In this document: positions 5,224 through 45,370 of the stretch, piece after piece
How the letters are laid out: every line of letters begins with the position of its first letter
Position numbering within the stretch: the first letter of the stretch is position 1
From: a virus
DNA: 45,370 nt
Strand: one strand, 5' to 3'
IMG/VR virus record: IMGVR_UViG_3300045988_070668
Location: 1-45,370 of that record
Notes under the pieces: generated by a model
The model's input: only the letters and a program-made list of their open reading frames with translations
Told to the model about the DNA's origin: nothing
The model's database searches: none
Position numbers and translations under genes: made by a program

Positions 5224-7896
5224 TTGAAGCCGGATGGAACCGTTGTAATTGACACAAAAATCAAAACTGATGGGGTAAAAGAAGGGACAGAGGACGTTGA
5301 GAAAACTCTGGTAAGTCTGAAGGACTCTTTGAAAATACTCCCTCAGGCTTTTAAGGATATCCCTAATATTGCGAAGCATGCTTTCTCGTCTGTGGCAAAG
5401 TCGGCCAAACAGACTTCTCCCAGGGTACAGAATTTACAGGACGAAATAGACCGGTATACCGATGCGTTGTATTACGCGGAGAAGGCTGGTTATGGGCTGG
5501 GAGATGCCCCGTATGATGAGGCATACAAAGGGCTTCAAAAGGCCAAACAGGCGGCAGAGGATTATAAAAGACAGCTATTAGGCGTTGATAAAACCCAGAA
5601 AAAAGCAGATAAAACAGAGAAAAAGTTTAATAAGTCATTAAAGGATACCAGTAAATCTGCGCGTGGCGCTCGAATGAGTATCGGGCGTATGCTTGCCACG
5701 TCCATTCTCTTTAGTACCGTATTCCGGGCCATATCTATGGTCACAGCCGGACTTAAGGAAGGAATGGACAACCTGTCGCAGTATTCGGATGATACGAACC
5801 AGGCCCTCTCTATTTTAATGTCAGCTATGACCCAGCTTAAAAATGCTTTTGCGACAGCATTTAGCCCGCTTATAGAATTCGTGGCTCCGGCCCTTGCCCA
5901 GTTTATCAATCTTTTGTCCCAGGCTGTAACCTGGACGGCGCAGCTCCTGGCAGCCCTTACCGGGAAGGATACGTTTGTTAAAGCGGTAAAAGTACAGCAA
6001 GATTATGCAGATAGCCTTGACAAGACAAAGGACGAAACCGAAGAGGCGGCGGATGCGACAGAAAAAAGCCTGGCTCCTTTTGACCAGCTTATCCAGCTCA
6101 CACAGAAAAAGAAAGACAAGGATAAGGATAAAAACGAATTAAAGCCGGAGGATATGTTTGTTACCGAGGAAGTATCCAACGGTATAAAGGTTCAAGCCGA
6201 CACAATCAAAGAAACATTCGGACAATTATTTGCGCCGCTTAAACAATCGTGGGAAGAAAATGGTCCACAGGTTTTATCATCTGTAAAAAATCTCTTCTCC
6301 GCAATCAAACAGCTTGCTGGTGATGTAGGCGCATCATTTATGCAAGTGTGGAATGCTGAAGGATATGGCAAGGCCATCACAGATGATTTGCTGGTTACAT
6401 TTTCAAATCTTGTGGATACAGTCGCTAACTTAATCACAAATTTTGATAAGGCCTGGGTATCCGGAGGAACTGGAACAAGTATACTCCGACATTTAGGAGA
6501 CATTATACTCGAAATAACCGGCTTCTTTAGGGCCGCATCAGAAAGCCTTAAAGAATGGTCTGCGGATCTTGACTTTACCCCGCTTCTAAGGAGTTTTGAC
6601 AATGTATTGATCGCCATAAGGCCGATTGTTTCGGATGTTGGAGATAATTTATTGTGGATGCTTAATGAGGTTCTGTTGCCTATCGCTGCATGGGGAGTGG
6701 AACAAGCTCTTCCAGAAGCGTTTAATTTGATTGCTGCCGCATTAAGAGTAGTACATAGCGTACTTGAGGCTTTGAAACCTTTAGGAATGTGGCTATGGGA
6801 TAATTTCCTTAAGCCATTAGGGCAGTGGACAGGATCAGTGATCATTGCAGCACTTAAAAAAATTACAGAATGTTTGGAAAGGTTCTCTGGATGGATTTCT
6901 GAAAATCAATCAGTAGTACAAAATGGAGCAATAACAGTGGCGGCCTTTTTTGCGGCCTGGAAAATAACAGAGATGCTTTCATTTATACAGCAGTCTGGCG
7001 GTGTTGTAAAAGCACTGGAAAACATTACAAAGGCAGTTGCTGGATCGACTTTGGCCAAAATCAAGGATTCAGCAGAGACGGCGTATCTCAATGCCTTATA
7101 TGCAAAAGATTTTTTGACCAATATAGCCAAGGCAACATCTGAGGTTGTTAAGCATACAGCACAGTTTATTAAGTCAACAGCAGCAAAATGGGCGGAGGTA
7201 GCGGCTCAAAAGGCTTTAACTCTTGCTACACAAGCGTGGAACGGGATTTGTTCCGCCGCAAGGGCGGCTACAACATTCTTTTCCAGCTCAATGGGAACTC
7301 TGGCGATAAAAATAGGGGCAGTCCTTGTTGTATTTAAAGCAATCTATGAATTGGCATCTATGGTATCCAGGGCATGGGACAAAATGACTCCAAATGAAAA
7401 AGTGGCAACAAAAATTATTGCTGTGGCCGGGGCCATCGCTTTGGTAGTTGCTGCCGCCGCCGCATTTATGCACGACTATGCAACATTGGCAATCGCTGGT
7501 TCTATAGCGGCCATAGCCGGGCTTTCGATAGCCGGAATATCATCGGGAGCCAGCAGCAGAAGTGCCTCATATTCACGTTCTGGATATTCCCTTGATACTT
7601 ATTCCACAATCCCCTATAAAATGCCCCGCCTGGCCACTGGAACGGTAGTACCGCCCAGGGCCGGAGAGTTTGCGGCTATCCTGGGAGATAACAAGCGTGA
7701 GACTGAGGTGGTATCGCCGCTGTCAACCATGAAACAGGCGTTAAAAGAAGCGCTCTCAGAGAGCGGATTTGGTGCGGGAGAACGAGATATCAACATCGAA
7801 CTGGTACTTGACGGGCAGCGCTTTGCCCGGGCTGTGTACAAGGCCAATAACCAGGAGAGACAGCGTGTAGGTGTAAGGATGGTGACGAATGGATAA
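5224..7896 (+). CDS. Tail tape measure protein (890 aa)
   Basis: Longest ORF in the window. Coiled-coil N-terminus, several hydrophobic Ala/Gly-rich segments, canonical position. TTG start after GAGGTGAG. Confidence 0.9.
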   Translation: MKPDGTVVIDTKIKTDGVKEGTEDVEKTLVSLKDSLKILPQAFKDIPNIAKHAFSSVAKSAKQTSPRVQNLQDEIDRYTDALYYAEKAGYGLGDAPYDEAYKGLQKAKQAAEDYKRQLLGVDKTQKKADKTEKKFNKSLKDTSKSARGARMSIGRMLATSILFSTVFRAISMVTAGLKEGMDNLSQYSDDTNQALSILMSAMTQLKNAFATAFSPLIEFVAPALAQFINLLSQAVTWTAQLLAALTGKDTFVKAVKVQQDYADSLDKTKDETEEAADATEKSLAPFDQLIQLTQKKKDKDKDKNELKPEDMFVTEEVSNGIKVQADTIKETFGQLFAPLKQSWEENGPQVLSSVKNLFSAIKQLAGDVGASFMQVWNAEGYGKAITDDLLVTFSNLVDTVANLITNFDKAWVSGGTGTSILRHLGDIILEITGFFRAASESLKEWSADLDFTPLLRSFDNVLIAIRPIVSDVGDNLLWMLNEVLLPIAAWGVEQALPEAFNLIAAALRVVHSVLEALKPLGMWLWDNFLKPLGQWTGSVIIAALKKITECLERFSGWISENQSVVQNGAITVAAFFAAWKITEMLSFIQQSGGVVKALENITKAVAGSTLAKIKDSAETAYLNALYAKDFLTNIAKATSEVVKHTAQFIKSTAAKWAEVAAQKALTLATQAWNGICSAARAATTFFSSSMGTLAIKIGAVLVVFKAIYELASMVSRAWDKMTPNEKVATKIIAVAGAIALVVAAAAAFMHDYATLAIAGSIAAIAGLSIAGISSGASSRSASYSRSGYSLDTYSTIPYKMPRLATGTVVPPRAGEFAAILGDNKRETEVVSPLSTMKQALKEALSESGFGAGERDINIELVLDGQRFARAVYKANNQERQRVGVRMVTNG

Positions 7897-11046: not shown

Positions 11047-11463
11047 ATGGAATGTTTACTGATGCAAAGCGGGAGTGGCTTTGACCCGGCAGAGGTCACT
11101 GCAACCCCCGGAAGTGTAAAAAGCGGGAAGAAATTCCTGGGCGCCGGAAGTGATGACGTACAGACCGGAACGCTTGCCACGGTCCCCAAAGTGGATGTAA
11201 AACTGGGAATCAATGAGTCTTATGCCATCAAACCCGGATATCATACCGGGGAGGACGTGGTATCCCAGTCCGGGATCCCGACATCACAGGGGCTGTCGAT
11301 CAACCCCACCGCCGGGGGCCAGACTGTGCAAACGGCTGGCACTTATTACACATCGGACACATACGTCCAGAGTATCGAAAACCTCCGGCCGGAGGTGATA
11401 AAGGATGGCGTCGTAATCGCAGACATCACCGGGACGTACCAGGGATTTGTAGATGAGGGGTAG
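11047..11463 (+). CDS. Tail fibre-like protein (138 aa)
   Basis: Shares motifs with the next gene (GKKFLGAGS...GT; INPT..GQTV.T.G.Y; NL.PE.IK.G), which suggests paralogy. Confidence 0.45.
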   Translation: MECLLMQSGSGFDPAEVTATPGSVKSGKKFLGAGSDDVQTGTLATVPKVDVKLGINESYAIKPGYHTGEDVVSQSGIPTSQGLSINPTAGGQTVQTAGTYYTSDTYVQSIENLRPEVIKDGVVIADITGTYQGFVDEG

Positions 11464-11466
11464 AAT

Positions 11467-12366
11467 ATGGCGGAAGCATTGATACAGCTTGTAAATCAGA
11501 ATGTAGATATTGATGGTCTTACGGCCAACGAGGCAGATGTTTTTGATGGGGCCACATTTATTGGCCAAGGATCAGAAGCAATACGGAAAGGGACCGGGGT
11601 TACACAGGGCGCCCCCACGCTGGGACTATCATTAAATGGGAGTGTGACTATCCCGGCCGGAAAATACACAGGCGGAAAGGTGCAGCAGTCCATCCCGGTC
11701 CTGGGAGAGCAGAGGATCAATCCGACATCGAAAAATATCAAAATCCCCACAAAGGATATGTATATGGCCGGGGATATCATCGTTGCATCAATCCCAAACC
11801 TTAAGCCAGAGAATATCAAAAAGGGGGAGTATGTCGGTGGTGTAGGGCCTGGAACCTGGGAGGGATATATTGTCCGGGACCCGGCGACTTTTTACTATCG
11901 CGGTACGTTTGCCCCAGGACAATCTATCATGGCGTTTAAATATTCTGGGTCATCGGATATCATGTCTCCCAACCTCGGCAAAAAGGCAATGGAGTTTTAC
12001 GGCAATGAGGATTCCAGAAGGAAATATTATGTTTTCTTGTTTAATTCTCCGATTGATATTACCTCAAAAAGCAAATTGACAGTAAAGGGGACGTACCACA
12101 GGGATGCAGCCGGAACAACGACCAATATGGTTCTGGACATATCGGGATACCAGAGCAAGGCGAGTGCCGGAGCCACTTACACAGGTTTAAACACTGGGGA
12201 CCGTATTTTCCTTAAACAACAGCGGTTCCCGACCGCACAAGGGACTTATCCGTATATGGTTGAGGTGGATATCTCATCCTATTCCCGGATTATTTATCTG
12301 TATTTCCTTGTAACGATGAACCGCCCAGATGACTATATGACCATTGACTCTATACAGTTTACATAA
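11467..12366 (+). CDS. Tail fibre-like protein (299 aa)
   Basis: The N-terminal part is paralogous to 11047..11463. The C-terminal half is AT-richer and divergent. Confidence 0.45.
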   Translation: MAEALIQLVNQNVDIDGLTANEADVFDGATFIGQGSEAIRKGTGVTQGAPTLGLSLNGSVTIPAGKYTGGKVQQSIPVLGEQRINPTSKNIKIPTKDMYMAGDIIVASIPNLKPENIKKGEYVGGVGPGTWEGYIVRDPATFYYRGTFAPGQSIMAFKYSGSSDIMSPNLGKKAMEFYGNEDSRRKYYVFLFNSPIDITSKSKLTVKGTYHRDAAGTTTNMVLDISGYQSKASAGATYTGLNTGDRIFLKQQRFPTAQGTYPYMVEVDISSYSRIIYLYFLVTMNRPDDYMTIDSIQFT

Positions 12367-12378
12367 AGGAGATTGATT

Positions 12379-13143
12379 ATGGAAGAGAACAAAAAAGACG
12401 TATTACCGCTCGAAGGAGAACCGCTGACCGCGCCGCAGATATCTGAACCAGTTGTGAACGCCCTGGCCGCCGCGCTGAATAAGATTGAGACGTATGTACC
12501 CACACAGTACATTAATGATGGGCCGCCGGACATTGATGCGGAACACCTCAACCACGCAGAACAGGCTATCATGCGGGTCACGAATTTAGCCAACGGAGCC
12601 GCCGATGCAATCGCCGCATTGCAATCCCAGGTTACTCAGCTAAATAATAATTTGGGATATTACATTACATCGACAGATGATTTTTCCCATACCTTAATAG
12701 GAGGAGCAGCACAAAATATCACCCTAAACTCAAAAATTACGCTCGAACAATACGCGAGAATTTTATTCCTTAACTATCCAGGTAGTAATGATGGTGCCTT
12801 ACTGGCTATTGCTCCTGGGAATAAGATAATTACTGCTTTTAGAAATAATGGAGTTTGGGAAGAAAAATCCTCGCATTTCATTGTCACAAGGTCCGATTTA
12901 GTCGCTGGAACAGCGAAATTCCCAAAAACTTCTGTTGGGACACAAGAAATAATTATAGATTTCCCATATGAAATGAGAACGGTTCCTGTTGTCCTGGTAT
13001 CATGGAAAGACACTGCGCGTATATTTGATCACATGGACGGATTAGTTGTCACAGAAATCGGAAAAACAAGGTTTAAGGTTGCAAGTAAACGAAAAATAGA
13101 AAGTTATGACTGGAGCTTTTCGTATCTTGCTATTTGTAGATAA
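12379..13143 (+). CDS. Tail fibre / receptor-binding protein with an invertible C-terminal domain (currently expressed variant A)
   Basis: ATG at 12379 lies 7 nt after AAGGAG (the ORF track starts at TTG 12373). Last gene of the tail operon. Codons AALQSQVTQLN are encoded by IR-L. The C-terminus (VVLVSWKD...VVTEIGKTRFKV) resembles an H-type-lectin-like fold. Confidence 0.7.
   Translation: MEENKKDVLPLEGEPLTAPQISEPVVNALAAALNKIETYVPTQYINDGPPDIDAEHLNHAEQAIMRVTNLANGAADAIAALQSQVTQLNNNLGYYITSTDDFSHTLIGGAAQNITLNSKITLEQYARILFLNYPGSNDGALLAIAPGNKIITAFRNNGVWEEKSSHFIVTRSDLVAGTAKFPKTSVGTQEIIIDFPYEMRTVPVVLVSWKDTARIFDHMDGLVVTEIGKTRFKVASKRKIESYDWSFSYLAICR
12614..12653. repeat. Inverted repeat, left copy (IR-L) of the invertible fibre segment
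   Basis: ccgcattgcaatcccaggttactcagctaaataataattt matches the reverse complement of 13671-13710 at 37 of 40 positions. The perfect core is 22 bp (12625-12646). Confidence 0.9.
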
Positions 13144-13150
13144 TAACAAC

Positions 13151-13705
13151 TCAATTAAACTGGAACCAGTTTATTGTAACTGCGTTATTCGTTTTTTTAG
13201 GTGAAACAATAATACTATTACCATCCACTACTATTGATAACTCATTATCAATAGTAGTGGAGAAGCCTACGGCAGCGTAAGCGCAATCCTTCATTTGCGA
13301 TGGCAATGTACCTCTAACTATATCACTTTGAGATGTTATAACCTTCTGAATATTTTCTTCCACTTTTACAACGAATTGTCCTTTGTCTAAATCGGACATT
13401 CTTGCATAACTTGTCCACTGTGACCAGTTTTTAGAATTTACATTATATGTACGGGTATATACGTATCCATCTGTTTTGTCATTAGTACCATACCTATAAA
13501 AAACTTGTTTGGTCGCACCATTAGAGTTTCTGTAAACTCTTACCCATCCATTTACTACTCCTTGCGGGAAATTATTTTGCTCAATTTTATCTTCATCCGT
13601 TTGTACCATCCATACCCCGCCTTTGGTCATAGTATTTAGATCAGTATCGTATGGTGCTGGTTCTCCTAATAAATCACTATTTAGCTGAGTAACCTGGGAC
13701 TGCAA
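13151..13705 (-). CDS. Silent alternative tail-fibre C-terminal cassette (variant B), expressible only after inversion
   Basis: The reading frame begins inside IR-R with QSQVTQLN, identical to the + strand gene. An in-frame TGA lies 4 codons upstream. The only start is a TTG with no RBS. About 173 aa of unrelated sequence follow the repeat. Confidence 0.7.
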   Translation of the reverse strand: MQSQVTQLNSDLLGEPAPYDTDLNTMTKGGVWMVQTDEDKIEQNNFPQGVVNGWVRVYRNSNGATKQVFYRYGTNDKTDGYVYTRTYNVNSKNWSQWTSYARMSDLDKGQFVVKVEENIQKVITSQSDIVRGTLPSQMKDCAYAAVGFSTTIDNELSIVVDGNSIIVSPKKTNNAVTINWFQFN

Positions 13706-13710
13706 TGCGG
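13671..13710. repeat. Inverted repeat, right copy (IR-R)
   Basis: The reverse complement reads ccgcattgcagtcccaggttactcagctaaatagtgattt. Confidence 0.9.
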
Positions 13711-13877
13711 GCGGGAATCAGCATTACATGGACCATAAAAATGGAATGTACACTGATAACCGCCCGCTCCCCGGAGGTGAATGAGATTGTATGGGCGTAC
13801 CACCGTGTGGGTGCAGAGGCTCCTATATTAATAATAACGTAACCACAGACCTTTTTGTGACCATTTTGGAGGAGAAT

Positions 13878-14087
13878 ATGGAATACATAGAAAAATTAAT
13901 AGGACAAGCCCGGTTCTGGTACGGATACCTGGAGAAAAAGAGTAACCGGGACCTGGACAATTTTACGGCCAACGCCGGAAACAAAAATTATACATGCTTT
14001 CCGTGGGACTACAAATTACATACCGGCCAGAACGTCCTTCTTCGGAGAGACTTTTTTTATGCAGAAAGTGAGGAACACATATGGTAA
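13878..14087 (+). pseudogene. Probable truncated N-terminal remnant of a CHAP/amidase-type lysin
   Basis: MEYIEKLIGQARFWYGYLEKKSNRDLDNFTANAGNKNYTCF resembles the N-terminus of lysins that normally continue into a catalytic Cys region. Here the ORF stops after 69 aa and is overlapped by the real lysin start. Confidence 0.4.
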
Positions 14088-14932
14088 GAGTTGGAAGTGC
14101 AAGATCGAATGAAAATGGTGGAATCAATGGCGGAAAGCCGGGAGACCAGAAGGGAGGAAGGGAGGTGTCCACGCAGGATTGGTATCTGCATAGCAAAGGG
14201 TGGGTCGTTATCCGCGCGAAAGATAGGCAAGCACGTGAGCTGATTGCCCACAACATGGAATCCATTTGCGCCAACAATAATATCGGTTACTGCCAGGATC
14301 ACAGGACAAGCCTGATTGCTCTTGCTGCTGGATATGGATATGATGCCAGCAAGGTTTTGTCACCCTGCGAGACAGATTGCTCCGAGGCTGTCCGGGTATG
14401 CTGCCTGTATGCCGGTGTGAAAGTGGCCAGTTTCAATACATCCAATGAGGTGAGTACATTGCGGGCGACCGGTAAGTTTGATATCTTAAAAGATGACAAG
14501 TACTGTAAAAAGCCCGACTACTTATTGCGTGGGGATATCCTGGTAACGAGGACAAAGGGGCACACGGTAGTTGTTTTGGATGATGGGGCCAAAGCTGCTC
14601 CGCCGGAGCCGGAAAAGAAATCCGGCTGGATCCAGGAGGCCGGGACCTGGAGATATTATCACGGAGACACAGGAGAGCCGATACGCAATGACTGGCACCG
14701 GGATCCCGATGGTCGGTGGTACTGGTTTGATGGCGCAGGGGCTATGGTCACCAACGCCTGGCGGCAGGATAAGGCCGGGAAGTGGTATTATCTGGGATCT
14801 AACGGAGCAATGGTCACCGGTCGGCTCCTCCAGATTGGCGATGAGGTCTTTGCCTTTGGTCCGGATGGTGCCATGCTGCGGGGAGAGATTCGGTGCCGGG
14901 CGGATGCAAGGGGAGCCCTCCGGACAACGTAA
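14081..14932 (+). CDS. Endolysin: N-terminal peptidoglycan hydrolase domain plus C-terminal CW_binding_1 (choline-binding-like) repeats
   Basis: N-terminus MVRVGSARSNENGGINGGKPGDQKGGREVSTQDWYLHSKGW...CETDCSEAVR...TKGHTVVV is typical of Clostridia prophage lysins. The C-terminus carries GW..E.GTWRYY / G.WYWFDG.GAMVT / GKWYYLGSNGAMVTG repeats. Confidence 0.8.
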   Translation: MVRVGSARSNENGGINGGKPGDQKGGREVSTQDWYLHSKGWVVIRAKDRQARELIAHNMESICANNNIGYCQDHRTSLIALAAGYGYDASKVLSPCETDCSEAVRVCCLYAGVKVASFNTSNEVSTLRATGKFDILKDDKYCKKPDYLLRGDILVTRTKGHTVVVLDDGAKAAPPEPEKKSGWIQEAGTWRYYHGDTGEPIRNDWHRDPDGRWYWFDGAGAMVTNAWRQDKAGKWYYLGSNGAMVTGRLLQIGDEVFAFGPDGAMLRGEIRCRADARGALRTT

Positions 14933-14956
14933 AAAGGCGGCAGATTGCCGCCTTTT
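14931..14956. terminator. Bidirectional terminator between the convergent lysin and recombinase genes
   Basis: AAAAA-GGCGGC-agatt-GCCGCC-TTTT. Confidence 0.75.
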
Positions 14957-15048
14957 CCATGTGTATGGATGTATCCTCCCTGAGTCCCAGGGATTACGTT
15001 CCTTTTTTTATTCTGCGTGGCGAAGGACGCAATATAAAAAAGAGAGGT

Positions 15049-16623
15049 TTAGAGCTCAACATAAAGGGTCTCCCCGTCCCAGACACACTTCTTTATTACT
15101 TCCCGGGCGATTGCATTTCTTTCGGCTGCCGTAAACCCATCAAAGTTTCGCATCTTCTCACTGATGATTTTTGCTCGTTCCTGTGTGGATACCTGGGCGG
15201 CAGAGCGTTTCCGTTCCTCCGACGCAGCTATGGTATATTCCCGGTTTAGGGCCTGTATCTCCAGGTCAAGCCGTTCCATTTCTGCGATGATGTATTTTGC
15301 CGCAGCAGAGTTTGAGGCCAGGGCCAGGGAGGCGGCCAGTTTCTCAATTTTTGCTTCACTGGATTTTATCTGGCTGGAAATCTTTTTGGGATCGGGGCCG
15401 GCGGTGGTGTCCCGGTCCTTCTGGGCGTACCGGAGGATGGCGGTATTATCTTGCTCGACTGTGCGGAGGATATCAACGACCTTTGCGTCCAGGGTCTCGC
15501 ACTTGATCTGTCTCATATCACACACATCCGCGCCTTGTCGTGTCCGTTTGGGGCAGTAATATGCGGAGGAGACGGACCCGTCCACTTTTTGCTTGCGTCC
15601 GATTGACATAAGCGCGCCGCACTTGCACCGGATCACGCCTTTTAAGAGAGGAGACGGCCAGCGGGCGGATTTAAAGCGTTGGTTCTGGGCAAACCGAGCC
15701 TGTACCGCAAGCCACTTTTCGGCTGGCATAAAGGGCTTGTGGACGCCCAGACACACCCTCCACTGGTCCGGGGGCTGTAATTCGTGTTTCTTATTTTTCT
15801 CCGTGGTGCGTCCGTAGACCATGACACCGACAGAGCCGTCCCATTTTTCGCGGGGGGATCCCGGGTCCATGATGCATCCTTTGGCCTGGTAAAAGTCGTA
15901 TACCTCCGGTGTAGCCTCTACGCAATATGGCATGGTCAAGATTTTGTGGAGCTGCGAAGCAGAGAAAAAACCTCCCCGCTGCGTCCGGATGCCTTTGTGC
16001 TTAAACTGCGTCTCCATCTTTTGTATGCTGCCGCCAAACTGGATAAACGAGTCAAAAATCCAGGTCACATATCTGGCCCCCTCTGGATCCGGCGTAATGG
16101 CACAGTGCTTTTTCCCGTCCACGATGATTCGGTCCCGGACGTATCCGACAGGCGGGTTCCCACCGACCCAGTAGCCTTTTTTTGCAAGCCCGATCATGTT
16201 GTCGGTCACTCTGGCGGCGATGGTCTCCCTCTCCATCTGGGCAAATACTACGGTCACATACATCATGGCCCGGCCAATGGGTGTGGATGTATCAATGTTT
16301 TCTTTGATGGATACGAATTTCACCCGATGCTCCTCCAGGGTGGCGTAGATATTGGCAAAATCCCGGACATCCCTGGACAGCCTGTCCAGTTGGTAAACGA
16401 TAAGGACATCTGCGCCGCCGGACCGGATATCCTCCAGAAGCCGCTGTAAGTCCGGGCGGTTAGTGTTGGCCCCAGTGAAATCCTCGTCGGAGTAGGCCCG
16501 GAAGTCGTCCACCTGGCCGGCATATTTGACATTGACGTAATCCCGGCACATACGGAACTGGTTATCCACGGAATCGGAGCGGTCAGAGTACACAGATTTA
16601 CGTCCATAACAACAGAATATCAT
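15049..16623 (-). CDS. Large serine recombinase (524 aa), presumed integrase
   Basis: N-terminal resolvase/invertase catalytic domain (YGRKSVYSD...DNQ...NRPDLQRLL...LIVYQLDRLSRD...ERETIAARV). This is followed by a recombinase domain, a Cys-rich zinc-ribbon region (CKCG...YYCPKR...C) and a coiled-coil tail. Confidence 0.9.
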   Translation of the reverse strand: MIFCCYGRKSVYSDRSDSVDNQFRMCRDYVNVKYAGQVDDFRAYSDEDFTGANTNRPDLQRLLEDIRSGGADVLIVYQLDRLSRDVRDFANIYATLEEHRVKFVSIKENIDTSTPIGRAMMYVTVVFAQMERETIAARVTDNMIGLAKKGYWVGGNPPVGYVRDRIIVDGKKHCAITPDPEGARYVTWIFDSFIQFGGSIQKMETQFKHKGIRTQRGGFFSASQLHKILTMPYCVEATPEVYDFYQAKGCIMDPGSPREKWDGSVGVMVYGRTTEKNKKHELQPPDQWRVCLGVHKPFMPAEKWLAVQARFAQNQRFKSARWPSPLLKGVIRCKCGALMSIGRKQKVDGSVSSAYYCPKRTRQGADVCDMRQIKCETLDAKVVDILRTVEQDNTAILRYAQKDRDTTAGPDPKKISSQIKSSEAKIEKLAASLALASNSAAAKYIIAEMERLDLEIQALNREYTIAASEERKRSAAQVSTQERAKIISEKMRNFDGFTAAERNAIAREVIKKCVWDGETLYVEL

Positions 16624-20958: not shown

Positions 20959-21168
20959 ATGCATGACATCAGTAAGATGCGCCGGGCCCGGAAGAGACAG
21001 AAACTTTTCCGGGCGGCAGTAAGGTGGATGGCCGTAGTGGCACTGTTTGGCCTGTCCTGGTTTGGCCTGTGCGTCCTTCTGGCACCTTACATGATGCTGA
21101 GACTTGCCGTATTTTTTTCCGGCATGATGCTGGTTCTGGCCGCAAAATTTTTAGAGGAGGAAGCATGA
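20959..21168 (+). CDS. Small two-TM membrane protein (69 aa)
   Basis: ATG after AGGAGGAAGAAG. The track ORF starts at an upstream GTG (20926). Confidence 0.45.
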   Translation: MHDISKMRRARKRQKLFRAAVRWMAVVALFGLSWFGLCVLLAPYMMLRLAVFFSGMMLVLAAKFLEEEA

Positions 21169-21785: not shown

Positions 21786-22586
21786 GTGTTAAAAACGGAG
21801 AACGGTAAGAAGTTAGAATTTAGGCTGCTGAATGCAGATGAGATTGATTGCCGCATCGCAATGGTGAAAGAATCTGGAGTGTCAATTCTGCTATATAAAG
21901 ATGCGAGAGTAGACCAGAATATTCTTGATGAGGTTATTGGACCTATGAATTGGAGCCGGTCTCATCAACTGATTGGCGACAGGCTATATTGTACAGTCAG
22001 TATTAAAGACAACGAAAGCGGAGAATGGGTTTCTAAGCAAGATGTTGGAACAGAGAGCTACACAGCAAAAGAAAAGGGACAGGCTTCTGATAGTTTTAAG
22101 CGAGCGTGCTTTAATTGGGGGATTGGCAGAGAGTTGTATACAGCCCCTTTCATCTGGATCCCTTCTAGCGTATGCAAGATATCTAAAGGACAAAATGGTA
22201 GATTTTCTTGCTTTGAGAATTTTTTTGTATGTGATATTGGGTACGATGATAACAGACGAATAAATCTATTAAAAATCGTAAATGGAAATGGGAAAATCAT
22301 GTACTCTATGGGAGATAAACCAAAAGAAGAATCCAATCCTAAAATGGCAAAGTTAGAAGCTAAGCATATCAATGAATTATATATGCAACTGCAAAGAACT
22401 GGAGTGGGATTATCTGGACTCCTTAAAGAGTATCATGTGAACGATATCCATGACCTTACTATTATGGATTATGAAAAAGCCATAGACAGATTAAAATCCA
22501 GGCCAGACAAGCCTATTGATCCTAACACAATTCCTCCAGAAAATTCAGATGATCCAACCCTCCCTTGGAATAATCCACAGAGGTGA
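21786..22586 (+). CDS. Rad52/Sak-like single-strand annealing protein
   Basis: ILDEVIGPMNWSRSHQLIG...AKEKGQASDSFKRACFNWGIGRELY matches the conserved Rad52-fold signature. Confidence 0.75.
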   Translation: MLKTENGKKLEFRLLNADEIDCRIAMVKESGVSILLYKDARVDQNILDEVIGPMNWSRSHQLIGDRLYCTVSIKDNESGEWVSKQDVGTESYTAKEKGQASDSFKRACFNWGIGRELYTAPFIWIPSSVCKISKGQNGRFSCFENFFVCDIGYDDNRRINLLKIVNGNGKIMYSMGDKPKEESNPKMAKLEAKHINELYMQLQRTGVGLSGLLKEYHVNDIHDLTIMDYEKAIDRLKSRPDKPIDPNTIPPENSDDPTLPWNNPQR

Positions 22587-23113
22587 TCCGAATGGAATGT
22601 ATTGGAAAGCTAAAGAGCATTTCCCAAGATTGGATGAGCGGAAAGTGGGAAATCACATTTTCTACCAATGAGAACATTACTGGAGGAATAGAAAATATTA
22701 AGGACAAGCTGCTTCGTATTTGCGTAAAACAGCATCGTGAAAAGCGGAGCCTGGATGCCAATGCATATGCCTGGGTGCTGATGCAAAAGATTGCAGAGGC
22801 CATACATACTGACAAGTGGTCCGTGTATCTGATGATGTTGGAGCGTTACAGCTCTGTTTTTACCCACATCATCGTAAGGCCAGAGGCAGTAGAGCGTGTC
22901 ATGGGCGAGTGGAGGACTGTTAAGGTACTCGGTCCCATACAGGTCAACGGAAGCTCTGGGATCCAGCTGCAATGCTATTTTGGCTCCAGCACCTTTGACT
23001 CAAAGGAGATGTCTAGTTTTATCGACGGAATCGTATCGGAGTGCAAGGAAATGGGGATTGAGACCTTGCCGCCAGATGAAATTGAACGAATGAGAAGGGA
23101 GTGGGGAATCTGA
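22583..23113 (+). CDS. NinB/Orf-like recombination mediator (tentative)
   Basis: REKRSLDANAYAWVLMQKIAE resembles the RSLDQN..LWA motif of lambda NinB. Sits next to the annealing-protein gene. Confidence 0.45.
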   Translation: MIRMECIGKLKSISQDWMSGKWEITFSTNENITGGIENIKDKLLRICVKQHREKRSLDANAYAWVLMQKIAEAIHTDKWSVYLMMLERYSSVFTHIIVRPEAVERVMGEWRTVKVLGPIQVNGSSGIQLQCYFGSSTFDSKEMSSFIDGIVSECKEMGIETLPPDEIERMRREWGI

Positions 23114-28608: not shown

Positions 28609-29089
28609 TCCAGAATTTACAATCAAGGCGGAGCCGTTTTCCTGGGATGATAACTTTTCTGAGGTGGCGTTGGAAGATTTCTCAAAAATTCAGAACGGTT
28701 TGCCCTATGTAATGTCCCAGAATATTGGTATGGCACTGGCAAAGATCAAAATGCTCGAAGAAGCTGCTGTGGAAGAGAAGAAACCGGATGCGCCCGACGG
28801 ATTTGTAACCACAGATTTCCCGGAAAGCTGTTTAAACTGTGATTTCTGCCATGAGCGAGAATATGATAACAGGCAGATGATACAGGGGAAAAGGTTTTGT
28901 GGAATTGAAAACGTAGAAGTGGAGCGATACTGCTCTTATGATAGGCCAGGAAAACCGGAGTGGTGCCCGGTGAAGAAAATACCAGAAAAGTGTCCGATGC
29001 AAACGGAGTCCGGAAATCATGTGATAGATTGGATGTATAATGCCGGATGGAATGCTTGTGTGGACAAAATGATCGAAGGTGGTGGATAA
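28601..29089 (+). CDS. Cys-rich hypothetical protein (162 aa)
   Basis: CLNCDFCHE...FCG...YCSY...WCP motifs. Directly upstream of terS. Confidence 0.5.
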   Translation: MDNPEFTIKAEPFSWDDNFSEVALEDFSKIQNGLPYVMSQNIGMALAKIKMLEEAAVEEKKPDAPDGFVTTDFPESCLNCDFCHEREYDNRQMIQGKRFCGIENVEVERYCSYDRPGKPEWCPVKKIPEKCPMQTESGNHVIDWMYNAGWNACVDKMIEGGG

Positions 29090-29749: not shown

Positions 29750-30995
29750 CACAATCCAGCTTACCGACATCATAGCCCCCGCATTTTATGATGTGTGGTG
29801 GGATATATGGGACGGAAAACATACATATTATGATGAGTATGGGGGAAGAGGTTCAACTAAAAGCTCTTTCATCTCTGTCTGTATAGTATTCTACATGATG
29901 AAAGACGCAAAAGAGGGCGTACACTCAAATGCTGTAGTGTTCCGTAAGGTAGGAAACACCCTCCGGGAATCCGTCTTTGAGCAGATTGCATGGGCGATTG
30001 ACGCACTGGGAGCCAATGACCTGTGGGCGTCCAGCGTCAGCCCTATGCAGTATGTGTATAAGCCCACCGGGCAGAAGATTATATTCCGGGGGCTGGACAA
30101 GGCGAAGAAAACAAAGTCCATTAAGACCAGCCGGGGGTATTTCAAATACCTCTGGTTCGAAGAACTTGATGAGTTCGCCGGGATCGAGGAAATCCGAACA
30201 GTACAGCAGTCCGTTCTCCGCGGCGGCAGTAAGTTTGTGGTTTTTAAATCATTCAACCCGCCTATCAGCCGTAGTAACTGGGCAAATGTGTATGTCAACG
30301 AGCCGAGAGAGGACAGTTACCGCCACAAGAGCGATTACACCAGCGTTCCGGCGGACTGGCTGGGCGAACAGTTTATAGCGGACGCTGAACATCTGAAAGC
30401 CACAAATGAGCGGGCATACCAGCATGAGTACCTGGGCGAGCCTGTGGGACTGGGGACCAATATCTTTGACATGCTGGAGATACGGACGATAACTGACGAG
30501 GAGATCCAGACATACCAGTCAATCTATCAAGGTCAAGACTTCGGATGGTATCCGGATCCGAAAGCCTTTATTCGGGCCGCCTATGTGCCCAATAAAGAGC
30601 GGATTGTCCTGTTGGATGAGCTGGGCGGGTGCAAGATCAGAAACGCAGATATGGCGCAGATGATAAAGGATAAGGGATACGATGACTATGCCCTGTTGTG
30701 CGGCGTGGACGAACAGGAAAGCATTGTGGACCTTCGGGACGCCGGGATCCCGGCCAGAAACGCCATTGTAACGCCGGGGAGCCGGAAATATACATTTGAG
30801 TGGCTGCAATGCCGGACGATTGTTATTGACCCGGACAGAACGCCGAGAGCATACAAAGAGATTATAGAATACGAGCATGAAGTAGACAGCAACGGGGAAG
30901 TGATTGCTGATTACCCGGACGGCAACGATCACTGGATCGACGCCCTGCGGTATGCAATTTCTCCTATGGCTATGAGAAGGGGGCACAGCGCATGA
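29742..30995 (+). CDS. terL: Terminase large subunit (PBSX/Terminase_3-like)
   Basis: Walker A GGRGSTKS and Walker B-like LWFEELDE. C-terminal nuclease region with DHWIDALRY. Confidence 0.9.
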   Translation: MTDTIQLTDIIAPAFYDVWWDIWDGKHTYYDEYGGRGSTKSSFISVCIVFYMMKDAKEGVHSNAVVFRKVGNTLRESVFEQIAWAIDALGANDLWASSVSPMQYVYKPTGQKIIFRGLDKAKKTKSIKTSRGYFKYLWFEELDEFAGIEEIRTVQQSVLRGGSKFVVFKSFNPPISRSNWANVYVNEPREDSYRHKSDYTSVPADWLGEQFIADAEHLKATNERAYQHEYLGEPVGLGTNIFDMLEIRTITDEEIQTYQSIYQGQDFGWYPDPKAFIRAAYVPNKERIVLLDELGGCKIRNADMAQMIKDKGYDDYALLCGVDEQESIVDLRDAGIPARNAIVTPGSRKYTFEWLQCRTIVIDPDRTPRAYKEIIEYEHEVDSNGEVIADYPDGNDHWIDALRYAISPMAMRRGHSA

Positions 30996-31348: not shown

Positions 31349-32776
31349 ATGGGAATTATCGCAACAGTAAAAAGGTGGATAGGGATGATATTCAGAAAAC
31401 AGGCAGAAAAAGATTTCCGGGTAAAGGATACCACGTCAGCGCAGATGATGGCTAAGATTACGGAGTGTGCCAACATCTACCGCGGCATGCCGTACTGGAT
31501 AGATGCAGAAAACCGTATAAAGACTATCAACTTTGCAAAAGCGGTATGCTCTGAGACGGCACGGCTCGTCACGCTGGGAATTAAAGTCCAGATTGACGGC
31601 GGCGCACGCGGGGCGTGGTTACAGGAGCAGATTGATAATGCATACTTTAACCTGCGTCACTGGGTAGAGTATGGCTGTGCTTATGGGACAGTCATTATCA
31701 AGCCAAATGGTGGCGGGCTTGATATGTTTACCCCTCTGGATTTTATCGTGACGGAGCAGGATGACAACGGAAACATTACAGGCATAGTCTTTAAGGATGG
31801 ATATACGGATAACGATAAGCATTATACACGTCTGGAGTATCACAGATTTATTGAGACGAGGACGGAATCTGGTGTGATATATCCGTATGTGATATCTAAT
31901 AGGGCGTATGTGTCGAGGAGTAGTGAATCGCTCGGGGACCCCATTCCGTTAGCCCAAACAAAATGGGCTGACCTGCTGGAGGAGACAGCGCCGATTCTAA
32001 AAGGTGGAGGCGAAAGGCTTGATTCTCCCATGTACGGAGTATTCCGGACACCTGCGGCGAACAACATAGACCTTTCTTCCCCACTGGGGATGCCAATATA
32101 TACGGAAGCTGTTGAGGAAATGAAAGACCTTGATATCGCATACAGCCGGAACGCTGGGGAGATATATGACAGTGAAAAGATTATCCTGGCAGATGATCGG
32201 CTGATGTTTGACAGTGGAAAGAGCCTTAATGGGCGTGTAGCAGACGTAAAGCTGCCGCACTATGTCAAGAATGTGTTTGGTAACAGCCCGGAGGAGTTTT
32301 ACCAGGAAATCACCCCGCAGCTTAACACAGATACAAGGCTTTCCGGGATCAATGCCCTTTTGTCTCAGATCGGGTACAAATGTGGATTTTCGAATGGATA
32401 TTTCGTGTTCAACGAATCTTCCGGGATCCAGACAGCCACAGGAGTGGAAGCAGAGCAGCAGAGAACAGTCCAGTTTATCAAGGATGTTCGGGACAAGCTG
32501 GAAAGCTGTTTGAATGATGCCATCTATGCCTTAAATGTATATGCAGACCTTTACGGCCTGGCCCCTGTGGGAACCTATAAAGTGGTATATGACTTCGGGG
32601 ACATCCTGTATTCCCACGAAGCTGACAAACAGCAGTGGTATGCTTATGCAATGCAGGACCGGATCCCGTTTTGGTATTATTTGATGAAATTTGAAGGATT
32701 TACCGAGAAAGAGGCCAGGGCACTTGTGGAAGAGGCACAGCCGAAAGAAGAACCGGGATTTTTCCAGGAGGAGTAA
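31349..32776 (+). CDS. Portal protein
   Basis: 475 aa, immediately after terL/HNH. Followed further downstream by the minor capsid gene. Confidence 0.8.
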   Translation: MGIIATVKRWIGMIFRKQAEKDFRVKDTTSAQMMAKITECANIYRGMPYWIDAENRIKTINFAKAVCSETARLVTLGIKVQIDGGARGAWLQEQIDNAYFNLRHWVEYGCAYGTVIIKPNGGGLDMFTPLDFIVTEQDDNGNITGIVFKDGYTDNDKHYTRLEYHRFIETRTESGVIYPYVISNRAYVSRSSESLGDPIPLAQTKWADLLEETAPILKGGGERLDSPMYGVFRTPAANNIDLSSPLGMPIYTEAVEEMKDLDIAYSRNAGEIYDSEKIILADDRLMFDSGKSLNGRVADVKLPHYVKNVFGNSPEEFYQEITPQLNTDTRLSGINALLSQIGYKCGFSNGYFVFNESSGIQTATGVEAEQQRTVQFIKDVRDKLESCLNDAIYALNVYADLYGLAPVGTYKVVYDFGDILYSHEADKQQWYAYAMQDRIPFWYYLMKFEGFTEKEARALVEEAQPKEEPGFFQEE

Positions 32777-38999: not shown

Positions 39000-39668
39000 C
39001 TATACAGGTTTTCTTTTTCCATTTACAGGGGTTTGAAGTATTTCTTCTGTACTCCATCCCCTTTGGTAACGATGTTGTAAAATGCCACGTTTTATACAAA
39101 GTTCCTTTGACCATTGAGATAATGTCATTGATTTTCCATTAAATTTCAATATAACATTATCCCTTTTGTTGTTTGATTGCTGCGATATAGTTGCCCATCT
39201 GCAATTTTGCGGGCAATAATCTCCATTGTTGTCGATTCTATCAAGACTGTGCCTATAAGGTTTTCCTCCGATAGAATCAGACCATTCAACAAAATTTGAA
39301 AAACTGTGCCATTCATCACAAACTTTTATTCCTCTACCTCCATAGTGGTAATAAGCTTTGTTGTTTGGGTTTTCACAACGGTTAATCATGTTTTTCCAGG
39401 TTCCATATAATGGATGTTTACTGCACCCGGGATATGATCCGGCAAGAGACATTCTCAAACATCCGCAACTTTTGACAACGCCTTTTTTAAATTGAGATGG
39501 AGTAATTCTCGTTTCGTTACCACAGTCGCATATACATTTTAAATACCAGCACTTATCACTTGGTAATCTTTCAGAGATTCCTATAACAGTTAAATGATGT
39601 ACTTTTTTTCCAATGTAATCATTGATTTTAAAATGCGGATGTTGTGGAATTTGGATAGATTTTTGCAT
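39000..39668 (-). CDS. HNH/AP2-like DNA-binding or homing-endonuclease-like protein (222 aa)
   Basis: Motifs YGTWKNMINRC...YYHYGGRGIKVCDEW..F.NF..W...LDRIDNNGDYCPQNCRWAT..QQSNN. AT-rich and on the opposite strand to all neighbouring genes. Confidence 0.45.
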   Translation of the reverse strand: MQKSIQIPQHPHFKINDYIGKKVHHLTVIGISERLPSDKCWYLKCICDCGNETRITPSQFKKGVVKSCGCLRMSLAGSYPGCSKHPLYGTWKNMINRCENPNNKAYYHYGGRGIKVCDEWHSFSNFVEWSDSIGGKPYRHSLDRIDNNGDYCPQNCRWATISQQSNNKRDNVILKFNGKSMTLSQWSKELCIKRGILQHRYQRGWSTEEILQTPVNGKRKPV

Positions 39669-40663: not shown

Positions 40664-41074
40664 ATGATTGAGTTAGTAAATACAGCGCCAGTTACTGTGC
40701 CGGTAGGCCAGTCAATCCCGTTTTCGGTGGTTGCCACAAAGGGAGGATGCGCGGAAAGGCACAGGGCCGGGAGCGCACAGATCACGCTTGCGAAGCCCGG
40801 TAGATATCTGGTTACATTTTCCGGTAATGTCGCAGTACCGACCGGAGAAACGGTAGGAGAAGTGGCCCTGGGAATCGCCAGAGACGGAGAAATCCTCGGC
40901 GGGACGGTCATGCGCGCTACTCCGGCAGCCGTAGAACAGTATTTTAATGTATCGTCCCAGACATACGTTGACGTGTTCTGCGGATGCTGCGAAAACGTTT
41001 CTGTTAAAAACGCCGGAACGATTCCGGTCCTGGTAGACAACCCGAACATTACAGCTGTCCGGGTATGCGGTTAA
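40664..41074 (+). CDS. TNF/C1q-like (BclA-C / ExsF-like) jelly-roll protein (136 aa)
   Basis: ATG after AAGGGAG. The track start at 40616 lies inside the terminator. The pattern IPFS...ITLAKPGRYLVTFSGNV...VALGIARDGEILGGT...NVSVKNAG..PVLVDN.NITAVRV is typical of exosporium-type TNF-like domains. Confidence 0.4.
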   Translation: MIELVNTAPVTVPVGQSIPFSVVATKGGCAERHRAGSAQITLAKPGRYLVTFSGNVAVPTGETVGEVALGIARDGEILGGTVMRATPAAVEQYFNVSSQTYVDVFCGCCENVSVKNAGTIPVLVDNPNITAVRVCG

Positions 41075-45192: not shown

Positions 45193-45235
45193 TTGACATT
45201 CTTGTACGGACGTGTATAATTATAGATGTACGGAC
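45193..45235 (+). promoter_or_regulatory. Strong promoter of immI-like module 1 with a 9-bp direct repeat straddling the -10
   Basis: TTGACA (45193-98), 16-nt spacer ending in TG, TATAAT (45215-20). TGTACGGAC occurs at 45203-11 and 45227-35. Confidence 0.6.
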
Positions 45236-45370
45236 AAGAATGGAGGTGAAATAAATGTCCCCAAGACCAAAATCAGATAAATCTAAGCACAATAGGTTTG
45301 AGCTTCGCCTTGATGATGAGATGAATGAGTTGTTAGAGGAGTGTTCTGAAAGGCTTCAAACGACAAAAAC
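45230..45370. repeat. Terminal direct repeat, copy 2 (identical to 1-141)
   Basis: See copy 1. Confidence 0.95.
45255..45370 (+). CDS. Duplicate 5' part of the RHH-1 gene (same sequence as 26-141), truncated by the window end
   Basis: Lies inside the terminal overlap. It is not a separate gene. Confidence 0.9.
   Translation, partial: MSPRPKSDKSKHNRFELRLDDEMNELLEECSERLQTTK

Follow-up and report, generated by a model that had tools for sequence, protein, structure and literature searches.

How could a temperate phage exchange the tip of its tail fibre by inverting a DNA segment when its complete genome holds no dedicated invertase? This question is raised by a locus in IMG/VR virus record IMGVR_UViG_3300045988_070668, the whole of which (45,370 nt, positions 1 to 45,370) was analysed and is referred to here as the window. 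The window is the genome of a temperate tailed phage of gut Clostridia. The last gene of its tail module, upstream of the holin and lysin genes, encodes the distal tail fibre, and an open reading frame (ORF) on the opposite strand shares with this gene a 40-bp repeat in inverted orientation. The locus is likely to be a DNA-inversion switch in the fibre gene, and inversion at such loci has occurred in nature in two sister lineages. The parts of the locus are as follows.

12379-12613, plus strand: constant N-terminal anchor of the distal tail fibre (receptor-binding protein).
12614-12653, plus strand: left 40-bp inverted repeat (IR-L), in frame within the fibre gene.
12614-12623, plus strand: left crossover interval, CCGCATTGCA, the outermost 10 bp of IR-L.
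12654-13143, plus strand: expressed cassette A, two sub-domains with an RSDL joint.
12888-12901, plus strand: SDL joint of cassette A, AAGGTCCGATTTAG, which forms a 14-nt inverted repeat with 13387-13400.
13151-13670, minus strand: silent cassette H, two sub-domains with an MSDL joint, tail-to-tail with cassette A and without promoter or start codon.
13387-13400, minus strand: SDL joint of cassette H.
13671-13710, minus strand: right 40-bp inverted repeat (IR-R), which pairs with IR-L.
13701-13710, minus strand: right crossover interval, the outermost 10 bp of IR-R.
13711-13877: silent-side flank, an almost invariant non-coding block (about 100% column identity across 15 distinct family loci).

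The two repeats are complementary at 37 of 40 positions, and their 22-nt core, TCCCAGGTTACTCAGCTAAATA, occurs in exactly two copies in the window, one on each strand, against 0.00 expected from 100 shuffles. Only two sites and two cassettes are present in the window. GC content is 0.33-0.39 inside the bracketed segment versus about 0.46-0.55 outside it, with means of 0.367 for the segment and 0.463 for the whole genome. IR-L lies within the ORF at 12379-13143, where it codes for AALQSQVTQLN, and the minus-strand ORF at 13151-13705 reads into IR-R in the codon phase of IR-L, with TAA and TGA in frame just upstream and no ATG. The stop codons of the plus-strand gene and the minus-strand ORF are 7 bp apart. 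When the segment was inverted in silico, the anchor was joined to the alternative cassette in an unbroken fusion of 264 amino acids. A preliminary description, made from the window alone, had proposed that this segment swaps the C-terminal domain of the fibre in the manner of phages Mu and P1; the repeats and their core, the AT-richer segment, the common codon phase without a second ATG, the tail-to-tail cassettes and the in-frame fusion on which it relied were all borne out. Rfam, promoter and terminator scans of positions 12000-15200 gave nothing above background.

A scan of viral and metagenome contigs for the repeat core returned 26 loci, 23 of which belong to the phage family of the window. 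The repeat, together with conserved outer flanks, is found in 22 related loci, and a single design is common to all 23 family loci: a conserved expressed flank, diverse cassettes and a conserved silent flank. The cassettes fall into 19 clusters, four of which (1, 2, 5 and 8) are found both behind the expressed flank and behind the silent flank. The clearest case is provided by loci L003 and L018, which match at 100% identity across 2 kb apart from an 898-bp segment, both repeats included, that is inverted in one relative to the other. In a second lineage, the 1039-bp segment of L091 is, when inverted, 100% identical to that of L002 (flanks 99.2/97.9%) and 99.8% identical to that of L022 (flanks 98.8/99.0%). 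A comparison of every locus by its four sub-domains recovered exactly two inversion pairs, L003/L018 and L002/L091, so that the search of related phages for the repeat in either orientation, which the preliminary description had put forward as a check, was rewarded. Across samples, the two orientations of the L002 lineage have much the same frequency, with P0093 on 11 contigs and P0003 on 7 according to database records; nine P0003-carrying contigs were read, the six shown coming from six different samples, and the P0003 orientation also occurs once in an NCBI Anaerotruncus colihominis record. Both orientations were observed only between samples.

For most lineages the product predicted from inversion also exists in the protein database, exactly for L002/L091 and, for L003/L018, L004, L008, L009, L017 and L010, as proteins of the same length that are 95-100% identical. 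All 17 two-cassette loci have a silent cassette that stays open over 93-201 codons, and the junctions on both sides are in frame in every case. The ratio of nonsynonymous to synonymous substitution (dN/dS) was 0.25-0.49 in clean pairs with silent members; these are single-domain pairs only, mosaic cassettes having been discarded since unrelated sub-domains become aligned in them. These values indicate purifying selection on the silent cassettes.

The position of the exchange could be read from the arms themselves. Those of L003 differ at five of 40 positions (11, 18, 21, 34 and 36), and all five differences have moved with the segment in L018, the flanks of the two being 100% identical, which places the exchange within the outermost 10 bp, CCGCATTGCA, or at their border. 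Between L002 and L091, repeat positions 34 and 36 likewise move with the cassettes. Since the longest identical run between the L003 arms is 12 bp and the exchange was nonetheless clean and reciprocal, an enzyme-directed conservative reaction is favoured over general recombination, and we infer that the exchange is enzyme-catalysed and site-specific. The sites of serine invertases (hix, cix) are exchanged at the outer edge of the repeat and have dissimilar outer half-sites, and the sfx sites of Rci are asymmetric tyrosine-recombinase sites that are also exchanged at the outer edge; outer-edge exchange, being common to serine hix and tyrosine sfx sites, does not identify the chemistry. Here, the exchange in the outermost 10 bp adjoins dissimilar outer flanks and is compatible with tyrosine and serine chemistry alike. 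By eye, the expressed-side site has the dyad TGCAAT-CGCCGC-ATTGCA and the silent-side site is without the outer arm.

The flank beyond the silent-side site is itself unusual in that 13711-13877 is more conserved among the 15 distinct family loci than either the adjoining holin gene or the neighbouring coding genes. That this conservation might be confined to the first ~20-30 bp, as the footprint of an outer half-site, was considered and rejected, the entire block from 13711 to 13840 being almost invariant. An ORF of 45 amino acids (13705-13842, plus strand), whose ATG lies within the crossover interval of IR-R, is annotated by gene callers in L087-L090. Neither the flank nor this ORF had a Pfam or Rfam match.

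What the segment would exchange was addressed through the fibre protein. The N-terminal anchor has 93-98% amino-acid identity across the family loci that hold the whole region. An AlphaFold model of the expressed fibre has a long helix (residues 54-92) that runs into AALQSQVTQLN and is followed by beta-rich domains. The second sub-domain of cassette A (predicted local distance difference test, pLDDT, 73-89) has a fold like those of H-type lectins (Helix pomatia agglutinin, discoidin), tailspike C-terminal domains and R-pyocin fibres, and like viral proteins labelled tail fibre, H-type lectin or gp53-like (best E value among these 6e-7); the structural resemblance is modest throughout. The model of the silent cassette (mean pLDDT 52) was too poor for use, and thus, of the two C-terminal structures whose prediction had been suggested, only that of the expressed distal domain was informative, as lectin- or fibre-like. 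The silent ORF does match PHROG tail-fibre families (E value 7.5e-07), and sister cassettes contain H_lectin, Gp53-like_C and Phage_fiber_rpt domains. A receptor-binding role for the fibre tip is supported by its position in the tail module, by the PHROG matches, by the domains of sister cassettes and by the fold matches, and the tip is inferred to determine host range. A perfect 17-bp palindrome with a 4-nt loop (13224-13261) lies in the coding sequence of the distal sub-domain of the silent cassette, where it codes for STTIDNELSIVVD; it is situated about 80 bp past the stop codon of the expressed gene, is not followed by a T-tract, and might stop or stabilise the fibre transcript.

Many cassettes are themselves mosaics joined at a conserved (K/R/T/M)SDL motif, even though the domains on either side are unrelated. 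The DNA of this joint, A(A/G)GTCCGAT(T/A)T(A/G), retains invariant synonymous codons (TCC for Ser, GAT for Asp) in 16 of 17 distinct joint candidates. Distal sub-domains are paired with different proximal ones across phages, being exchanged at the SDL joint, and the two sub-domains of H occur separately, fused to the constant N-terminus, in P0001 and P0003. A nested inversion between the joints at 12888-12901 and 13387-13400 fits no pair of loci and was rejected; the joint appears, on sequence comparison, to be a point of evolutionary shuffling only.

Departures from the two-cassette design were also seen. Single-cassette derivatives (L001, record IMGVR_UViG_3300045988_184399, and L087-L090, at 5236-5846 in L087) have IR-R directly after the stop codon of the cassette, so that inversion would truncate the fibre. 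In L005 (2403-4003), a third cassette is present in direct orientation and keeps only the AATAATAATTT end of the repeat, without the crossover site.

The following mechanism is proposed. The anchor ends in a long predicted helix, and its last codons (AALQSQVTQLN) are duplicated, inverted, 1 kb downstream; between the copies, two unrelated AT-rich cassettes lie tail-to-tail, with only the cassette joined to the anchor being expressed. The outer edges of the repeats, within CCGCATTGCA, would undergo a reciprocal exchange of the conservative type that flips the segment and joins the other cassette in frame, and the flip would change a lectin-like tip presumed to recognise the host surface.

An inversion of this kind calls for a recombinase, and the recombination functions of the window are the following.

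15049-16623, minus strand: large serine recombinase (integrase) of 524 amino acids, with Pfam Resolvase, Recombinase and Zn_ribbon_recom domains.
About 15001-15043: phage attachment site (attP), CTTTTTTTATTCTGCGTGGC-GA-AGGACGCAATATAAAAAAGAG, with dyad symmetry, ~25 bp past the integrase stop codon.
21786-22586, plus strand: Erf-like single-strand annealing protein (PHROG phrog_1097, 2e-17).
22583-23113, plus strand: NinB/Orf mediator (PHROG phrog_72, 5.5e-20).

In a domain scan of every ORF of plausible size, the integrase was the only recombinase found in the window. Pfam scans of the window gave no protein of the Phage_integrase family, and no small serine invertase (~190 amino acids) lies beside the segment, the interval between IR-R and the holin gene holding only the 45-amino-acid ORF. 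The Erf-like protein and the NinB/Orf mediator are the homologous-recombination functions of the phage. The attachment site was mapped from prophage-host junctions (attR in L018 and L014, attL in L027 and L028), and the bacterial site (attB) lies within the gene of a T2SSE/CpaF-type secretion ATPase (Pfam 1.7e-55), the host part starting at about 6060 in L018 and at 1726 in L027.

Several observations weigh against a working inversion switch in the window. Its complete circular genome has no dedicated invertase according to the domain scan, its inversion sites share no evident motif with attP or attB, and no phage combining an invertase in cis with this repeat core was present in the viral and metagenome collections scanned. 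The A/H arrangement was found in one orientation only, in all nine contigs read that carry the exact fibre protein of the window, and the alternative fusion of 264 amino acids, used as a query, was absent from a database of 5.8 billion clustered proteins; the switch of the window itself may therefore be slow, biased or inactive. The arms of a given phage are mostly of the same repeat variant, which suggests that homology-dependent gene conversion acts on the repeats. Only one hint of both orientations within a sample was obtained, from the contig of L019 (ERZ506950 NODE-15710, ~2x coverage), which ends at 1281, 1 nt outside the repeat, where an assembly graph would be expected to branch if both orientations coexisted in the sample. 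With this being 1 of ~40 contig ends examined to fall at the repeat edge, contig ends were rejected as a sign of such branching. The swap of tips proposed in the preliminary description finds its support in the sister lineages, through two exact pairs, cassettes seen in both positions and fusions that exist as real proteins, while the lineage of the window is known in one orientation only.

A possible source of the enzyme is suggested by related Clostridia/Lachnospiraceae phages that carry fibre shufflons. In L078 (7980-10513), a fibre whose N-terminus is 49% identical to that of the window is accompanied by a tyrosine recombinase inside a multi-site cassette array. L056 (10421-13417) has an integrase 63% identical to that of the window, with the same synteny, together with a separate tyrosine invertase, four sites and three extra cassettes. 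L086 (3063-6554), an otherwise unrelated phage of lower GC content, has a fibre gene of 548 amino acids, a 23-bp repeat and an adjacent tyrosine recombinase. The recombinases of all three are proteins of 330 amino acids of the Phage_integrase family, located inside or beside the cassettes, with sites of 19-23 bp; when they were used as tblastn queries against the window, no match was obtained at E<=1. As in the window, the cassettes of these phages lie between the fibre gene and the lysis genes; the window's family differs in being without the recombinase gene and in having a repeat extended outward by 17 bp. A 23-bp perfect inverted repeat is present at the equivalent junction of L076 (8374-9064), with no space for a recombinase between its arms. 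No published description of the fibre loci of L078, L056, L086 or L076 was met in a literature search that was not aimed at them.

The link to L086 is close enough to define one further feature.

12629-13692: mobile two-cassette module, comprising A, H and the inner ~23 bp of each repeat.

This module is 98.5% identical to that of L086 over 1064 bp, in the same arrangement. The remaining 17 bp of the repeat, on its outer side, are family-specific and are the part to which the exchange maps; the repeat of the window is therefore composite, its inner ~23 bp having arrived with the module. The silent flanks of the window and L086 have the short patches ATGGTCCATG and CCCGCCC in common. The A+H module is horizontally mobile, and cassettes and sub-domains circulate between phages.

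Since the genome of the window is without a dedicated invertase while its relatives keep a tyrosine invertase in the equivalent locus, the likeliest candidate is an enzyme provided in trans, whether from a co-resident prophage or from the host; the integrase of the phage itself is the second candidate, with homology-driven recombination also to be considered. A 1.2-kb insertion carried by the flipped lineages was tried as a source of the enzyme and rejected, as it codes for Gp111-like, helix-turn-helix (HTH) and 99-amino-acid proteins and no recombinase.

Among the alternatives to an enzyme-driven switch, the first is that there is no dedicated enzyme and that host RecA, the Erf/NinB-Orf annealing functions or template switching now and then recombine the 40-bp repeats, selection for an altered host range then fixing the rare products. 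The phage does encode its own annealing protein and mediator and no invertase, and the same-variant arms point to gene conversion; a family repeat of 40 bp, compared with 23 bp in the invertase-bearing module, would be expected if homology length matters, and a single orientation in the nine contigs of the window lineage would fit a rare event. However, the five differences between the L003 arms leave a longest run of 12 bp, and RecA or Red-type systems normally need far more identity than this. In L003/L018, moreover, the reciprocal exchange was clean, lay at the repeat's outer edge and left no hybrid repeat, and the near-equal abundance of both orientations of the L002 lineage across samples suggests frequent switching. 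We therefore consider homology-driven inversion unlikely.

The second alternative is that the window carries a frozen relic, the A+H module having been acquired recently from an invertase-owning phage in a copy that no longer switches. The 98.5% identity with L086, where an invertase stands beside the module, is what such an origin would leave; so is the single orientation among contigs with the exact protein of the window (35 contigs are recorded for the 98%-identical cluster P0032), as is the absence of the alternative fusion from the protein database, and the single-cassette derivatives demonstrate that the locus can decay. Yet sister lineages with the same repeats and flanks, and equally without an invertase, did invert; silent cassette H is fully open, with both of its sub-domains in use elsewhere; and conservation of the silent-side flank and repeat extends throughout the family. 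A relic is accordingly judged improbable.

A third proposal is that the large serine integrase also serves as the fibre invertase, for which it would use a second site pair that bears no relation to attP/attB. No other recombinase is encoded in the complete genome, so that it is the sole phage-encoded candidate; its identity is 96% or more in all family members in which the region is visible, the exchange maps to the family-specific part of the repeat, and outer-edge exchange with dissimilar outer half-sites resembles the appearance of serine invertase sites such as those of Hin (hix). Large serine integrases, however, are normally directional and require two different types of site. The inversion sites have no evident motif in common with the attachment sites, and the crossover interval does not contain the central att dinucleotide GA (or TC). 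A 9-mer near attP, AGTCCCAGG (14983-14991), was considered as a link to the inversion sites and set aside, as it falls outside the attP core and is compatible with chance (p ~0.03, post hoc). No repeats of this kind lie within 6 kb of more distantly related integrases, the integrase relative in L056 coexists with a separate tyrosine invertase for the fibre shufflon, and no large serine recombinase acting as an invertase, and so no precedent for this proposal, was found in a literature search. A dual role for the integrase is therefore rather doubtful.

Finally, although metagenome assemblers can mis-join at repeats and several contigs are of low coverage, a chance repeat match or mis-assembled "inverted" relatives are effectively refuted and extremely improbable, given that zero chance matches are expected, that the architecture recurs in 22 loci from many samples, that the P0003 orientation was read on nine contigs (with six samples among the six shown) and in an NCBI Anaerotruncus colihominis record, and that both junctions are in frame in every case.

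Read as a DNA-inversion switch, the locus can be compared with known systems. The Gin/Cin/Pin/Min/Hin class is defined by short inverted repeats with crossover sites that bound a segment, and these are present here. In Mu G/Gin, P1 C/Cin, e14 Pin and p15B Min, a constant fibre N-terminus is combined by inversion with alternative promoterless C-terminal cassettes, as in the window. Those systems use a small serine invertase, whereas the window has none beside the segment or elsewhere in its complete genome; the likeness to Mu and P1 drawn in the preliminary description thus holds in logic and fails for the enzyme, as no Gin/Cin-type or other dedicated invertase is encoded. A gix/hix-type site spans 26 bp, consisting of two 12-bp inverted half-sites and a 2-bp core, and the window sites, judged by eye, bear no resemblance to the gix/hix consensus. 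The class also has a Fis-dependent recombinational enhancer, and Fis is not expected in Clostridia. Unlike the Mu/P1 class, the phage of the window has a Gram-positive anaerobe as host and one fibre ORF per orientation, with two-domain mosaic cassettes in place of an S/U-type gene pair.

The R64 shufflon swaps the C-terminus of the PilV adhesin by means of the tyrosine recombinase Rci, encoded by the adjacent rci, at seven sfx sites. Each sfx site has a conserved inner arm, a crossover beside it and a non-conserved outer arm, an asymmetry that restricts recombination to inversion. The sites of the window are compatible with such an asymmetry; the R64 target is a plasmid pilus gene rather than a phage fibre. 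The Rci/Rin type also has a dedicated tyrosine recombinase in or beside the array, which is absent from the window and present in L078, L086 and L056, and several sites in both orientations with three or more cassettes, where the window has two sites and two cassettes. Reactions of large serine recombinases use an enzyme encoded by the element, as is the case here, and sites resembling attP/attB, which the inversion sites do not.

Closer in biology is the Rin shufflon of Bifidobacterium prophages, which has its own tyrosine invertase, 11-bp rix sites and 3-5 cassettes (Mavrich et al. 2018; PMC6109161). These too are temperate gut siphophages of Gram-positive hosts in which a constant receptor-binding N-terminus is joined to variable C-terminal cassettes, and the evidence, from comparisons of prophages and virions, is akin in kind to that for the window's family; the window differs in having two cassettes, a 40-bp repeat and no invertase, and there is no sequence relationship. 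A second inversion locus in bifidophages, with genes of unknown function and an 8-bp breakpoint, is like the window without a flanking recombinase, and an invertase acting in trans was proposed for it (PMC6109161). In a survey of gene-altering programmed inversions, tail-fibre proteins were an enriched target class, and the tail-fibre cases confirmed by long reads were prophage loci annotated as COG5301 or Mu-homologous tail fibres (Milman et al. 2023; PMC9881135). That class is marked by repeats common to a full-length gene and an opposed promoterless fragment that provides an alternative in-frame allele, as in the window, and typically by a nearby recombinase gene, which the window is missing. 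The novelty claimed for the locus in the preliminary description was hence overstated, since invertible receptor-binding cassettes had already been described in phages of Gram-positive hosts (the Rin shufflon and the second bifidophage locus; PMC6109161) and tail fibres are a recognised target of programmed inversion (PMC9881135). The literature search turned up no such switch described for Clostridia phages. The principle is known from Gin, Cin, Min and bifidophage Rin; what is new is an orphan fibre-tip switch that shares its cassette pool with invertase-bearing phages.

The ends of the window are identical over 141 nt (1-141 and 45230-45370), which marks the assembly as complete and circular, with a length of ~45,229 bp, and it represents the excised (attP) form. 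Three further genes serve as landmarks.

5224-7896: tape measure.
13878-14087: holin.
14081-14932: lysin.

The order runs from the tape measure through the tail genes, fibre gene, holin and lysin to the serine recombinase (minus strand) and an S24/HTH repressor, followed by antirepressors, replication genes, terminase and head genes. Antirepressor-type genes (AntA/KilAC and Rha, at 580-1320 and 1881-2621) also occur within the head-tail connector region, and an HNH endonuclease is encoded on the opposite strand (39000-39668, minus) within the head module. A tail protein of 138 amino acids (11047-11463) is paralogous, at 33% identity, to the N-terminus of the next protein (299 amino acids; region 11047-12366). 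The interval between the lysin terminator and attP (14953-14977) is a variable cargo site, empty in the window copy; relatives have a 1.2-kb insertion here (4341-5560 in L017, and also in L018, L003, L014 and L030), and L004 (1-2096) has ~2 kb of other genes. The fibre locus had no blastn match among 50,697 GenBank phage records, and the exact repeat core had no match among 185,579 species-representative genomes.

The host of the phage is probably Anaerotruncus; one family member is annotated in Anaerotruncus colihominis (WP_317399863.1). The scan for the repeat core also brought in three gut-metagenome contigs, L011 (32-1721), L013 (49-679) and L026 (24-1477, reverse-strand coordinates), that carry clustered regularly interspaced short palindromic repeat (CRISPR) arrays with the repeat ATTTCAATCCACGCTCCCACAAGGGGAGCGAC, which we take to be type I-C-like. 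Seven of the 25 distinct spacers match the window with 1-4 mismatches, at 13669-13703, 21115-21148, 29039-29074, 30822-30857, 31891-31924 and 40813-40846. One of these spacers covers IR-R (13669-13703) at 34 of 35 positions, a target that is present twice per phage genome. The owner of this array is probably a host of the window's phage family.

For the many uncultured temperate phages of gut Clostridia, it is above all the host range that is not known. Taken together, these findings indicate that one such phage family carries a ready-made second receptor-binding tip and flips to it in nature, with tips and sub-domains drawn from a pool common to unrelated phages and a whole module 98.5% identical across families. 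Inversion of tail fibres has been known in principle for decades, and examples from Gram-positive hosts have been described; the finding adds to known biology and overturns none of it. If the integrase or the invertase of a foreign prophage drives the switch, this would be a new kind of dependency between mobile elements. Should the integrase invert the segment, one recombinase would control both lysogeny and host range through a reversible reaction between like sites; in the weaker alternative, the phage would free-ride on a tyrosine invertase encoded by an unrelated prophage in the same host, and would exchange cassette modules with that prophage as well. With two 45-bp sites and candidate enzymes defined, the system would in either case be simple and testable, and the locus bears on host prediction, on strain-level phage variation in metagenomes and on phage engineering.

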